Assembly (NCBI RefSeq): GCF_018977255.1
Contig: NW_024704753.1
Span: forward strand, 5,580,001-5,644,000
Reading direction: 5' to 3'
DNA length: 64,000 nucleotides
Source: Callorhinchus milii
Taxonomy: Eukaryota
The first letter of the stretch is position 1; every line of letters begins with the position of its first letter. The notes below the pieces were generated by a model. It did no database searches. It was not told the origin of the DNA and saw only the letters and a list, made by a program, of their open reading frames with translations. Shown piece by piece: positions 1,043 through 63,544 of the stretch. A program made the translations under genes and the position numbers.

Positions 1043-1365
1043 TAATAATAATAATAATCCTTGCATTTGATATAGCGCTTTTCACATTGGGAGGACGTCC
1101 CAAAGCGCTTCACAGAACACACTGTAAAGTGAATTGACTGTATATTTGTGAGTGAACGCGGCAGCCAATTGCGCACAGCAATGTCCCACAAACAGTCGTA
1201 GATTGAAAATGACCAATTTATTATTGTTTTTTTGTTTTTTTGGAGGGATTATTATTAGGCGTGTGGAGTAAGGAAACTTGCCCAAGGTTTCGCTCTGCCT
1301 AGAATTGAACTCAGGTCTCTCGCTTTCAAAGCGAGTGCTCTAACCACTGAGCTACAGGACTCCAC
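1043..1365 (-). mobile_element. Full-length tRNA-derived SINE with Deu-domain body and L2-type tail
   Basis: On the minus strand: head GTGGAGTCCTGTAGCTCAGTGGTTAGAGC (A box) and GAGTTCAATTC (B-box-like); Deu-like TTTGTGGGACATTGCTGTGCGCAATTGGCTGCCGCG; (TTA)n tail. Near-identical to the 44117-44455 and 60445-60771 copies. Confidence 0.9.
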
Positions 1366-44116: not shown

Positions 44117-44455
44117 ATAATAATAATAATAATAATAATAATAATCCTTGCATTTGATATAGCGCTTTTCACGTCGGGAGGACGTCCCAAAGCGCTTCAC
44201 AGAACACACTGTAAAGTGAATTGACTGTATATTTGTGGGCGAACGCGGCAGCCAATTGCGCACAGCAATGTCCCACAAACAGTCGTAGATTGAAAATGAC
44301 CAATTTTTATTATTGTTTTTGGTTTTGGATGGATTATTATTAGGCTCTGTGTGGAGTAAGGAAACTTGCCCAAGGTTTCGCCCTCTGCCTGGAATTGAAC
44401 TCAGGTCTCTCACTTGCAAAGCGAGTGCTCTAACCACTGAGCTACAGGACTCCAC
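44117..44455 (-). mobile_element. Full-length young tRNA/Deu SINE
   Basis: Intact head with an Ala-like TGC loop (ctcgct ttgca agtgag), CpGs retained, long (TTA)n tail. Confidence 0.92.
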
Positions 44456-53161: not shown

Positions 53162-53563
53162 AGCGGCTTATCACATTGTTGAGGCGTCTCAAAGCGCTTT
53201 AGTGTGATCAGTGTTGTTTTTTGGCTGGAGTAATACACGTAACAATACATGAATTGTACACAGTTTATATTGTAAAGTGTAATGGACTGTGTATTTTGTG
53301 CGCAAATACGGCAGCCAATTGGGCACAGCAGTCTCCCACAAACAGTCATGAATTGAGTGACCAAATTATTATTTATTTATATATATTTTTATGAAGGGAT
53401 TATTACCCTGGAAAGCAATCCGCCAATCGACTAACAACTGGGTTCCTATTTACTGCTAGTAAACAGAGGCATGTAGAATAAGGAAAGGTTTTGCCCCACA
53501 TGGGAATCGAACCCGAGTCCTCACTAGCGAGGCGAGCGCACTAACCACTACGCTACGGGACTC
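53162..53563 (-). mobile_element. tRNA/Deu SINE, long subfamily with an extra module
   Basis: Head with B box GGTTCGATTCCC, Deu body, and an insert of about 60 bp shared with 43377-43432. Confidence 0.85.
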
Positions 53564-58582: not shown

Positions 58583-60444
58583 TTAATTGATTTACATAAA
58601 ATTGTATGTTAAATTTGGGTTGGATTAACACAATTTTGTGTGTTAATTGAGATTCCGCAATTTGCTTTAAAGGTTTGAATCTTAAAAATAGTCTTGTTCC
58701 AAAATTGCAGGATGATCAGATTATAACTGCAAAAGCGTATGATACAGTATAAACTAGATTTCACTGTATCAAATTTTGTTAACATAATTTAAATTTGATT
58801 ATAAGGCAGTTGCATAAAATCCTATTCCCATAACTTGTCAGCCCTTTATCTCAAATTCTCGTAAATCTTTGTAAAGCATTATAAAAGAAATGGCATTCCT
58901 TGGGCCTACTTTTTTTTTCTAAAGCATTGAATTTAATCCCTGACCTCAAATTCTCATTGCATAACAAGCTTTTTATTGTAAATATTCAATTGGCAGTGTA
59001 GGTGGAGAATGTAATTAGAACAGCCTGCATTTAATAGATAATCTTTAATAATGATTTTTATAGGCCACTGTGGAGAATGTTTTATGTGTTGTGAGATTTT
59101 ATTAGTTTTAACAATGAAGAGGCATAAAATGAATTTTGACTGATATATTCCAGACATGCATCAGCGGTTCAGTATTGTTTTGACTGAATAGGGAAGGACA
59201 TGTGTTTCAACTGATAATTTAGATAGTTGCACAAATGCATGTAAAGGACTACTTCAGAGTAATAATCTTACAAGTTCTGGGTTTTATCCCACTGATTTGG
59301 ATTAAATAGTGTGCTGATTAATTATTGCAATTTTTTTGTCAGGATGTGAATCAACATATTTAGCATCAGTATAGTTGTTTACAGATGCAGAATTCATAAA
59401 TGTTGCTGAGTGTTGATGACCAATTAATGAATTAATTGATTATAATGGAAATAAGATCATTTTTAGTTCAGGATTGTGTTTGATTATTTGTATTTAATGT
59501 CGTGAAAGTGCTTTTTAACCCTGCACCCTTAAGGAAAAACTACTCTTTTCTTCTACAGAGATTATTTTATCATTGATATGCTAGAAAGTGGCATTATCCT
59601 ATGAACAATGTGTATGAGGTGTCAGTTTGCTTTGCAGCATTTCTGTATCATTTTAAAATTTCTTCCTTCAAAGTGTTCTTATTTAAAAAAAATGTTTTGA
59701 TCTGTATCACTTCCTAATAATGTGATGCTTTTTAAGGAAATATGTGTACTATCAGTTTGCTCATGTGTTTAAAAGTTCTGGACCTTGAATTGCATTTCAC
59801 AGGAGCTTTGGAAAGCTTGGCTCTGAGAGTTTAATAAAACAACTGCAGGAACTGGGAGTACGGCTAGGATTACACATTGGTCTGGATTTAATAAATAAGA
59901 ACAACAACTTGAATTTATATAGCTCCCTTCACAGAGGGTAGCATGTCGGAGCGCTTAACAGTGGCAGAGCCTGACCCAAGCGTGAGGTGACCGTAGGTAT
60001 GATCTTGTGGATAATGAAGATGAGGTATTGTGCCTTCTGTCTAAGACAAGGCAAGGTCAACCAGGGTCCTGCTTCTGCTCACTATCCAGTGCACCCCATC
60101 TCCCTCTCCACACCCCCACCCCTCCCCCCATCAAATAAACAGCTGATTCACACAGTCTACGTTCGCACATGAAGAGCAAGCACTCGGCAAGGTACTGTAT
60201 GCTCCCTCTTGGTGACATCATCCGCAGACATGGGGTCAACTTCCACATGTATGCAGATGACGCCCAACTGTTCCTCTCTGCCTCCACCCTTGACTCCAGA
60301 ACCACTGCTGCCATGACTGAATGCCTGTCGGACATCTATTCCTGGATGAGAGCTAACTTTCTGCAGTTGAACAAGACCGAGGCCCTCCTGATTGGCTCCC
60401 ATCAGTGCCTCCTCACCTCAGGAGCTGACAGTATCACCATCCAT

Positions 60445-60771
60445 AATAATAATAATAATAATAATCCTTGCATTTGATATAGCGCTTTTCACGTCGGGAG
60501 GACGCCCCAAAGCGCTTCACAGAACACACTGTAAAGTGAATTGACTGTATATTTGTGGGTGAACGCGGCAGCCAATTGCGCACAGCAATGTCCCACAAAC
60601 AGTTGTAGATTGAAAATGACCAATTTATTATTGTTTGGTTTTGGAGGGATTATTATTAGGCTCTGTGTGGAGTGAGGAAACTTGCCCAAGGTTTCGCCCT
60701 CTGCCTGGAATTGAACTCAGGTCTCTCGCTCGCAAAGCGAGTGCTCTAACCACTGAGCTGCAGGACTCCAC
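60445..60771 (-). mobile_element. Full-length young tRNA/Deu SINE
   Basis: Near-identical to 44117-44455. Confidence 0.92.
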
Positions 60772-60774
60772 AAT

Positions 60775-60966
60775 GAGAGCGAGTGGGTGAGAAAGAGAGG
60801 ACGAGAGCGTGAGAGATGGTGTGCGTGTGTGTGTGTGTGTACGTGACAGGCTGCGTGTGAGAAATAGAGTGTGTGTGAGAGTGTGAGCGTGTGTGTGAGA
60901 GTATGAGCGTGTGAGAGAGAGTGTGAGCGTGTGAGAGAGAGAGAGAGAGAGAGAGGGAGGGAGGGA
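60775..60966. repeat. Compound (GT)n/(GA)n microsatellite
   Basis: gtgtgt, gagcgtgtgaga and gagaga units are directly visible. Confidence 0.9.
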
Positions 60967-63544
60967 TAGGAATTGGGGTGTAATGCCTCTCAAACTCCAA
61001 CGCTGTCACACAGCTTCAGTGCAGTAAATCCGCGCCCACACGTACACACGTCCGCGCCCGTAGTGTCAGATCCAGGCTGTGCTGGGGGGGGGTTTGTGGG
61101 GGGTGGTGGTGGGGGGGGAAGAATCCATGGTTGCACACTTCACCTTGCTAAGCCAGTCTGGAACCTTGGGGTCTTGTTTGACCCTCAACTATCCTTTCTA
61201 CCCCACATCAGCGCAATGACCCGCTTTGCCTTCCTCCACCTCCGCAACGTTGCCCTGCTGCAACACTGTCTCACACCGCAGGCCGCCAAAACCCTCATAC
61301 ACACCTTCATTACATCAAGGCTTGACTGTACAAACTCACTGCTTGTCGACCTCTCCAACTCCTCCCTCCACAGTCTGCAGATCATCCAGAATTCTGCAGC
61401 CCTTGTCCTCTCCCGCACTAAGCTCCGCGACCCTATCACCCCCATCCTTGCCCAACTCCATTGGCTTCCCATCACACAAAGGATACAGTTCAAGATCCTG
61501 GTCCTCACCTACAAAGCCCTCCATGGTCTTGCTCCCCCCTACCTCTGTGACTTCCGAACCACCTAACATCCTGCTTGCTCCCTCTGCTTAGCAGGCTCCG
61601 ACCTGCTTCACGTCCCCCGCCTCGCTTGCCCCACTATTGGCGGGCGGGCCTTCTGCCACTCTGCAGCCCCTCTCTGGAATTCCATCCCGCAGTGCCTCCA
61701 CCTCGCCCACTTCCTTGCCACCTTCAAGACCCATCTCAAGACCCTCCTCTTTGACCAGCTTTTGATCTCCCTGCTTTCCCCACTACCCTCCAACGACCCC
61801 GACCCCCAGGTCGGGTCCGTAACTCTGTCTGTCCAGGCCTTGAAATGTTCTCCCGACGTGAAAGGCGTTATACAAATGTAATTTTGTTCTTGTTGTTGTT
61901 GGAGACTGCTGGAGCCTGTGAGACTACCTCGGCAGAGTCAGCGCCTGCAGGGGACTCAGGAGAGGATTTCAAAAAAAGAAAATTGCTTCCCATTATTCTT
62001 ATCTCAATGAATAGCTTAAAAAATTAGAAAACAACGTTTGATCTTTCTGTTGGTTTAAAGAAAGCAAGTTTCAATCAAAGGGGAAGCAAATATATTAATT
62101 AGCTGAACATGTTGTCATCATCTAAAGGAGGGGGAGAAGGACACAAGCTTTTGGATTGGCTTAATTTGACCGTTGTTATCCTTTTCCCAAATTTCTGGTT
62201 CTTTCATGATGATATATAGCAATTGCTGTTTGATGGTTTGACATCTGCTAGCTAGTGGATGACTAGCAGTATCTAGGTTGATATATTCATTCAAAAAAGC
62301 TTCATCCAAGAAGGTACTTTTAATTCTTTTGAAGATCTTAGGAAAGCAGAGTATTGGGTCAGTATATGTAGTTGTTTGGCTGTGCTATTCAAAAACAGAT
62401 GACAATCTATATCTGCTTTAATGTAATTTGGGTGCGATTGATTCAGACTGGACTGGATTGCACTGTGCAGCTGGTCTCACCAGTCTTATTTCTGTCTAGA
62501 TGAGATAGAATCATCCAAGTACAACAACTTGCATTCATATAGCGCCTTCACCCAGGGTAGTGTCCCGGAGCTTGGTATCTAATACACCAAATCACAAAGG
62601 AGACTTAGCTACCTTTGTCATCTGGAACTTCAGAAAGTTCTGAGGGGATCCTACTCTAAAATTACTTCCTTGAAGCTCTTGAAATTATAACCGATCTAAG
62701 TTTGCAAACAGAGAATAAGACTATTTTCAGCACCAGTAGTTCCAGATAGTTTTAAGTTCTCAGGCCAGAATTGACTTTCTTGTGCTAGAATTTAAAGCAA
62801 CCTCATGCATAGTGTGGTTTCTGGGCCCAATATCTTAGCGGATTTGATTTAAGACAGTTTATTGGTATACCCCTTGCTGGGACAGACAACAAACAAAACA
62901 TGATTGGAGAGTTTGGTATCTTTGGTAGCTTTGCAGACAGTATCCAAATTTTTCTGCACAACTCTTGCTGAAATAAAAGTCCACGATTGTCACAATTAGT
63001 TGAAGAATTCAACCTTATGATGAACCTAATAGCATGAATGTGACAGAGATATCATCTTTGCAAATAAAGTCACATCCGCCACAATAATGATTTTCAGTTG
63101 CCTTGAAGCACTTCAACCTTCTTTCTCAAAATAAACTGGTTACGGGGTGGGGAGGGGTGTTAGCCCTCAATTACTTGTTCACGGTGGAGTGGCAGGTTTC
63201 ATTCCCAAATCAGAATAATGCAGACACTTGTCTTGTTTCAATGAGCAGCAAAACACAGCTCTGTTTTTGCTCCTCCACTATCTCCCCCTATGTAATGTAA
63301 ATGACACTGACAAGAGCTATATTTTCTAGAGCAAGGCAGACAGAAATATTTTGATAAATCAATGAATAGGTTCACAATTAGACTGCAACATTGGTTTTCC
63401 TTGCATTGCGTTTTCTTGAAATATTTGTTTTCAAAATTGTATTTTTTTAAATCATGTTCCAAACATGATTGCATATCAATTATAGAATTCAATGAATATT
63501 TTTTCAGTGGATTCACATTAAATACATTCATGCACATTGGAAAG

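Follow-up and report, generated by a model that had tools for sequence, protein, structure and literature searches.

SINE-tailed retrocopies of PSMB6 mRNA in Callorhinchus milii, probably mobilized by an L2-type retrotransposon

The window analyzed here is a 64,000-nucleotide stretch of the genome of the chimaera Callorhinchus milii (contig NW_024704753.1, positions 5,580,001 to 5,644,000), in which a 678-bp insert interrupts ORF2 of an L2-type long interspersed element (LINE). The insert lies on the minus strand and consists of a 351-bp extension followed by a 327-bp short interspersed element (SINE) that runs from 60771 to 60445. Judged by its sequence, the extension is host mRNA sequence from 3' of the stop codon of PSMB6, the gene for proteasome subunit beta type-6, and the same extension joined to the same SINE was recovered in 45 independent insertions. 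We are highly confident that the template was a spliced PSMB6 RNA ending in the SINE, and we consider it likely that L2, starting directly at the tail of this transcript, copied its 3' end into the 5'-truncated insert seen here. What is new is a family of SINE-tailed mRNA retrocopies that end in an L2-type tail and not in poly(A); processed pseudogenes, SVA 5' transduction and U6-L2 chimeras were known before.

The structure of the insert agreed with an initial annotation of the window. The 6-bp target site duplication (TSD) ATCCAT stands on both sides, and removal of the insert restores the L2 ORF2, whose two flanks share one frame through DSITIHGCTL. All of the features described for the extension 5' of the tRNA-like head were found, namely two GGGCGCGG boxes, CpGs and the (CT)n/(CA)n arrays; the CpGs number 17. 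A single TSD encloses the whole unit, in keeping with the proposal that one RNA, which began upstream of the Pol III start of the SINE, was retrotransposed once. Two other SINE copies, with ends at 1365 and 44455, were said to lack the extension and indeed have unrelated upstream sequence, as do all seven extension-free copies that we picked by head pattern, upstream of the position equivalent to 60771. An Rfam search of the extension revealed no structured RNA; the only hit, to snoZ178, scored 19 bits, the threshold being 100, and was a microsatellite match. The left flank matched RVT_1 weakly (E = 0.0013, under the curated cut-off), and the C terminus of the host element carries an HWLP motif, which we take to be a mark of L2. 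From this motif and the 3' tail, we infer that the host LINE belongs to the L2 clade.

Genome searches with the unique 158 bases of the extension (60965-61122) returned 22 matches of 92 to 100% identity, all of which run through the microsatellite into a full SINE. A 26-base pattern laid over the extension-SINE junction gave 48 matches with at most one mismatch, and the reversed control gave none, indicating that the two parts were not joined by chance. Pooled, the searches yielded 51 loci; the initial annotation had held that an extension present at one locus only would speak against its proposal. It had also taken many copies joined to the same SINE head as a sign of a new composite family; such copies exist, but this criterion would have misled, their source being one host gene. 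Six loci carry the flanks of another locus and, on that evidence, are DNA-level duplicates, leaving 45 independent insertions; both totals are lower bounds. Relative to the end of the PSMB6 stop codon, the 5' ends of the 45 copies are staggered from −214 to +354, and some extend beyond the window copy by as much as 239 bases on the 5' side; contrary to what had been supposed, the unit therefore does not start at the C-rich stretch. Coding sequence is present in three copies (L006, L012, and L010) and absent from the other 42. The mean divergence from the majority sequence was 1.4% (33 copies), and variation in the part derived from the 3' untranslated region (UTR) is star-like, without sub-lineages. 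TSDs of at least 5 bases flank 13 of the 45 copies, compared with 4.7% of the mismatched flank pairs that served as background (P = 1e-7), and TSDs of at least 4 bases flank 20 of 45, compared with 13%; the 5' ends of three loci were set by hand. Where present, the TSDs are mostly 4 to 8 bases long. Every copy ends in TTA repeats (44 by pattern and L091 by eye), and a run of eight A residues behind the tail was found in none of the 45.

The longest copy, L006, contains 213 bases (1262-1474) that encode 70 residues and a stop codon. The best match of this peptide among solved structures was PSMB6 (E = 3e-26), with PSMB9 matches from 2.7e-22, and 68 of its 70 residues are identical to the C terminus of P0003, a protein labelled Callorhinchus milii by UniRef. 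Two other copies, L012 and L010, start 83 and 40 bases, respectively, before the end of the PSMB6 stop codon, while the window copy starts 25 bases past it and the SINE follows 373 bases past it. A DNA search with the coding part of PSMB6 found these three copies only, all of them SINE-tailed. L006 encodes Phe at a position where P0003 has Tyr, and the public sequencing runs described below differ within PSMB6 at L006:1332 (A or G, giving Asn or Ser).

We compared L006 with contigs from public sequencing runs. In all three DNA-sized runs (X2, X3, and X4, from one study), contigs diverge from L006 at base 1346, where they continue into the splice donor GTGAGT; in one of the runs (X2), there is also a contig that joins L006 at this base, preceded by a pyrimidine tract and AG. 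Other contigs of these runs pass base 1346 unbroken (region compared, L006:1225-1484). The corresponding codon of a PSMB9-like paralogue, on contig C646 of assembly G000, is also interrupted by an intron. L006 itself is continuous at base 1346, precisely where the DNA contigs branch into a GT..AG intron, and this indicates that its template was a spliced mRNA; intron loss can be assessed in L006 alone, the window copy being too short. Contigs of runs X5 and X8, which we guess to be RNA, cover L006 from 1261 to 1501 without an intron, reaching 27 bases past the stop codon, and separate contigs of the same runs cover about 1530-1647 of the extension. Upstream of the L006 start, one contig each of X3 and X8 encodes the preceding residues of P0003. 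Taken as a family, the copies thus show features of processed pseudogenes, that is, intron loss (in L006), 5' truncation with dispersal, and TSDs, whereas the 3' poly(A) of the classical L1-type pseudogene was found in 0 of 45.

The 3' end of the unit points to L2. The last 79 bases of the SINE are identical to the 3' end of the host L2 at 57 of 79 columns, the comparison being with the L2 of the window, and both sequences fold into a predicted hairpin (no shuffle control). This L2-type tail is in line with the earlier suggestion of mobilization by L2. The name of the SINE was derived from the organism, the head, and the tail, and on these grounds it is likely a CmiSINE. CmiSINEs (SINE2-1_CM and SINE2B-1_CM) are described as having an L2-2_CM tail, 302,861 insertions, and members in the 3' UTRs of 104 mRNAs (Luchetti et al. 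2017, PMC5499810). A related copy in the window, at 44380-44450 (96% identical), was called tRNA-Ala by ARAGORN. The head haplotype of the window copy has nine genome matches, of which three carry the extension and six have unrelated sequence upstream. These six (L099, L101-L104, and L106) share the rare haplotype and start at the first base of the SINE; going by them, the SINE of the parent gene may double as a Pol III master.

We envisage the following route. A sense SINE would have inserted about 373 bases past the PSMB6 stop codon in the parent gene, and germline PSMB6 transcripts would read through the entire SINE. The L2 ORF2 protein (ORF2p) would bind the tail hairpin in trans, prime at a nick, and copy the PSMB6-SINE RNA toward its 5' end by target-primed reverse transcription, which would mostly fail early and stall at the C-rich tract. 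Such early failure would explain why 42 of the 45 copies lack coding sequence and resemble a SINE with an odd head. Each copy was most likely dead on arrival. Counting stops from the SINE in the 5' direction, we found 31 within 8,618 bases of exposure, 11 within 234 bases at the C tract, and 3 beyond it. The stop rate at the C tract is 13-fold above that downstream (P = 9e-9), and 11 of the 45 ends fall within the first 30 bases past the stop codon. As these ends are spread from +4 to +29, the tract appears to be a stall site and not a start. A role of the C-rich start or the GC boxes as a promoter was not supported; the 5' end of the window copy is one of many truncation points. At the C tract, the growing cDNA is G-rich and fits a quadruplex pattern, although a quadruplex as the cause of the stall is only a suggestion.

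Several observations weigh against direct copying of a PSMB6-SINE transcript. TSDs are shorter than 4 bases in 25 of the 45 copies, and the RNA status of X5 and X8 is a guess. Protein, coding-DNA, and intron-motif searches did not find an intron-bearing PSMB6 in assembly G000, where the full-length PSMB6 protein matched L006 and L012 and, at no more than 61% identity, paralogues. Nor did any contig of the public runs join the stop codon, the extension, and the SINE, the contigs breaking at the C tract and the microsatellite; that the parent UTR carries the SINE is accordingly deduced from the copies. The SINE part is also more variable than expected of a single template: the 16 to 17 longest copies share 10 variant sites in 281 SINE bases compared with 1 in 198 UTR bases (P = 0.03, or 0.09 without CpG decays), and all four gametes occur at 112 of 210 site pairs across the 45 copies. 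Finally, the AATAAA in the middle of the SINE could end most mRNAs short of the tail. With regard to the parent gene, G000 is incomplete, so that absence from it is uninformative about the animal, and runs X2 to X4 contain the intron. With regard to the SINE, mosaic halves attached to a near-invariant UTR make it probable that the SINE part exchanges sequence with the pool of free SINEs, by template switching or gene conversion.

The mosaic halves could also mean that the copies arose by recurrent, homology-guided template switching, in which the reverse transcriptase first copies a free Pol III SINE RNA and then jumps, within the SINE, to the SINE of the PSMB6 mRNA. Tails would then come from many SINE masters, and this process could supply some or most copies. 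A 3-base SINE insertion with 1,214 exact genome matches, present in 2 of the 45 family members, fits such jumps, as does L013, where it occurs together with a variant of the head that 10 of the 45 family members have but none of the eight readable loci of the insertion subfamily. L2 template switching has, moreover, been held responsible for the U6-Mon-1 and U6-AnolisSINE2 chimeras (PMC4476161). However, the excess of private changes 3' of the AATAAA that switching predicts was absent (21 in 7,038 compared with 19 in 6,311 sites, P = 1.0 without the outlier L010; P = 0.14 with it), and linkage along the SINE does not decay with distance among the 45 copies. One head haplotype is near-private to the family (four of its five genomic matches) and is linked in seven copies to a variant just outside the SINE, as would be expected of alleles of the parent, and gene conversion should produce the same mosaics. 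We give recurrent switching a rather low probability. A scheme in which mRNAs are cut at the AATAAA and always borrow the tail of a free SINE was rejected for the missing excess of private changes 3' of that site.

The remaining explanations place the join or the priming elsewhere. A single old chimera, formed by a switch between SINE and PSMB6 mRNA or by a SINE landing behind a retrocopy, could have become the master under a host promoter, leaving the real gene free of a SINE. The join in the parent UTR was not directly seen, and a secondary master would also be spliced. This account is nevertheless improbable: no master was found, the three copies that reach coding sequence differ in their 5' ends and have unrelated flanks, no copy bears the flank of another apart from the six duplicates, and a UTR variant of L006 is missing from most copies. 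Up to the SINE, the extension also contains neither a poly(A) hexamer nor a run of A residues and is in this respect unlike a finished mRNA end. The initial annotation had offered two options, a 5' transduction and a composite repeat-plus-SINE family comparable to SVA. Of these, a transduction-like source is favoured. An autonomous family with a C-rich, GC-box promoter head of its own could claim the clustering of ends at the C tract and the intact CpGs, but the clustered ends all match PSMB6 post-stop sequence, three copies extend past the tract into spliced coding sequence, and the staggered 5' ends and star-like UTR variation on a host mRNA do not describe such a unit; it is largely refuted, and we regard it as very improbable. 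Least credible of all are ordinary L1-type processed pseudogenes, primed at poly(A) and carrying the SINE as a UTR passenger. L1 TSDs are typically longer than 4 to 8 bases, the usual length here, and the uniform TTA tail refutes poly(A) priming unless poly(A)-ended PSMB6 copies exist. A spliced, 5'-truncated copy of a housekeeping gene does match the usual profile of such pseudogenes, and Alu elements in 3' UTRs are over-represented among pseudogene parents (PMC5199112).

Retrocopying of a PSMB6-SINE transcript by L2 resembles several known systems. Of the same lineage is the CmiSINE/L2-2_CM pair, with a tRNA head, an L2-like tail, and SINEs in 3' UTRs; UTR CmiSINEs are handled there as miRNA targets, and the main text has no mention of retrocopies, pseudogenes, or transduction (PMC5499810). 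In SVA 5' transduction by SVA_F1, a host promoter (that of MAST2) likewise drives an RNA ending in a non-autonomous element, 5' host sequence lies inside one TSD, and many copies derive from one source; SVA_F1 differs in that MAST2 exon 1 is spliced into SVA, which relies on L1 and poly(A) (PMC12593883), whereas the RNA behind the PSMB6 family is an entire spliced mRNA whose last exon continues into a small SINE of the Pol III class with an L2-type tail. The U6-L2, U6-Mon-1, and U6-AnolisSINE2 chimeras are described as cellular RNA retroposed only with an L2-type 3' segment (Doucet et al. 2015, PMC4476161), but they involve a small nuclear RNA and template switching, and the PSMB6 family a protein-coding mRNA, one fixed junction, and 45 insertions. 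A platypus snoRNA-RTE chimera (Schmitz et al. 2008, as cited in PMC5499810) similarly couples a housekeeping RNA to a LINE tail and amplified in a SINE-like manner; it is non-coding, has an RTE tail, and reached up to 40,000 copies, compared with an mRNA, the tail of an embedded SINE, and tens of copies here. For Alu and B1 elements in 3' UTRs, an association with retrocopying of the host mRNA was reported (Farre et al. 2016, PMC5199112), but as a statistical bias under the relaxed, poly(A)-dependent L1, whereas PSMB6 copies end at the SINE tail itself.

L2 elements need their own 3' segment, and processed pseudogenes are reported to be rare where L2 dominates (PMC3747384, PMC4476161); the scarcity is attributed there to mRNAs lacking the L2 3' signal (PMC4476161). 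The PSMB6 family would be a simple way round this requirement, and any gene with an intact sense UTR SINE could become a substrate; the parents of retrocopies in chimaeras should then be genes whose UTR SINE lies in sense and has kept its tail. In cartilaginous fishes, a 2026 preprint counts 14,081 retrocopies, and the passages seen do not discuss a SINE-tail route (10.64898/2026.06.26.734816). Our search of the open-access literature, with subscription journals outside it, returned no report of SINE-tailed mRNA retrocopies in chimaeras. Copies such as these would escape protein-based pseudogene searches, because 42 of the 45 are UTR-only and three carry coding sequence. We tentatively propose a wider scheme, which we consider possible but doubtful: in a genome with a tail-specific L2, a SINE landing in a 3' UTR would give rise to a mobile, SINE-like family from a housekeeping mRNA, and homology-guided exchange of template between this mRNA and free SINE RNAs would finish the copies. 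It would amount to a general and so far overlooked retrocopy route that does not depend on poly(A). Being made from a single template, the 45 copies further provide a map of L2 reverse transcription stops, with its 13-fold hotspot, and they keep a record of the 3' end of PSMB6, a gene that our searches did not locate in the assembly; there, an annotator would meet the L006 retrocopy alone as PSMB6.

Features of the insert and of its host element in the window
Feature	Position	Strand	Remarks
Host L2-type LINE ORF2 before the insertion, reverse transcriptase region	60166..60444	+	Open frame with YADD; weak RVT_1 match
TSD, left copy (ATCCAT)	60439..60444	.	TSD scan recovers ATGGAT on the element strand
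SINE 3' tail, similar to L2 3' end, with (TTA)n end; likely (putative) L2 ORF2p recognition site	60445..60523	-
tRNA-headed SINE, 327 bp, likely CmiSINE (SINE2-1_CM group)	60445..60771	-	Name derived via PMC5499810
AATAAA within the SINE, sole canonical poly(A) hexamer of the insert	60624..60629	-	Putative signal
tRNA-like head	60700..60763	-	Rfam RF00005, 37.4 bits, E = 3.7e-6
Non-repetitive UTR stretch just 5' of the SINE, family-specific junction	60772..60822	-	48 matches, control 0
(CT)n/(CA)n microsatellite of the PSMB6 3' region	60823..60960	-	Arrays at 60855-60963; length varies from copy to copy
Unique PSMB6 3' UTR stretch with two GGGCGCGG boxes	60961..61082	-	Equals the majority of 17 copies
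C-rich tract; 5' truncation point of the insert, 25 bases past the PSMB6 stop codon	61083..61122	-
TSD, right copy (ATCCAT)	61123..61128	.	Shared frame of the flanks
Host L2 ORF2 C terminus, 3' UTR, and (TTG)n tail	61129..61899	+	Element end near 61899

The unique UTR stretch at 60961..61082 is mostly covered by contigs of the two runs guessed to be RNA. Like the window copy, L007, L012, and L019 are inserted in older LINEs, which by eye are L2-like or CR1-like. Five loci on five small contigs (L050, L051, L052, L063, and L076; C1209, C457, C116, C984, and C110) have flanks that are 94 to 100% alike, and represent one insertion later amplified as DNA within a GT-rich, internally repetitive unit. 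L053, L060, and L088 lie on one contig (C81) with an identical 5' end and upstream flank, as in a local duplication. L008 has lost 11 bases exactly at the extension-SINE junction, as might result from a small deletion or from a template switch that was slightly displaced.

ARAGORN made three tRNA calls in the window (1290-1361, 44380-44450, and 53492-53561); all three lie where the SINE head matches and probably do not mark tRNA genes. Matches to proteasome beta paralogues were found at L026, L028, L033, and L035 (C133), at L036, L046, and L047 (C390), and at L039-L041 and L045. The matches on C133, C390, and other small contigs are long and intronless, some with stop codons, and possibly represent retrogenes or an intronless subfamily. 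L025, L027, L034, L037, and L042-L044 (C646) belong to the intron-bearing PSMB9-like gene, with an apparent second copy nearby.

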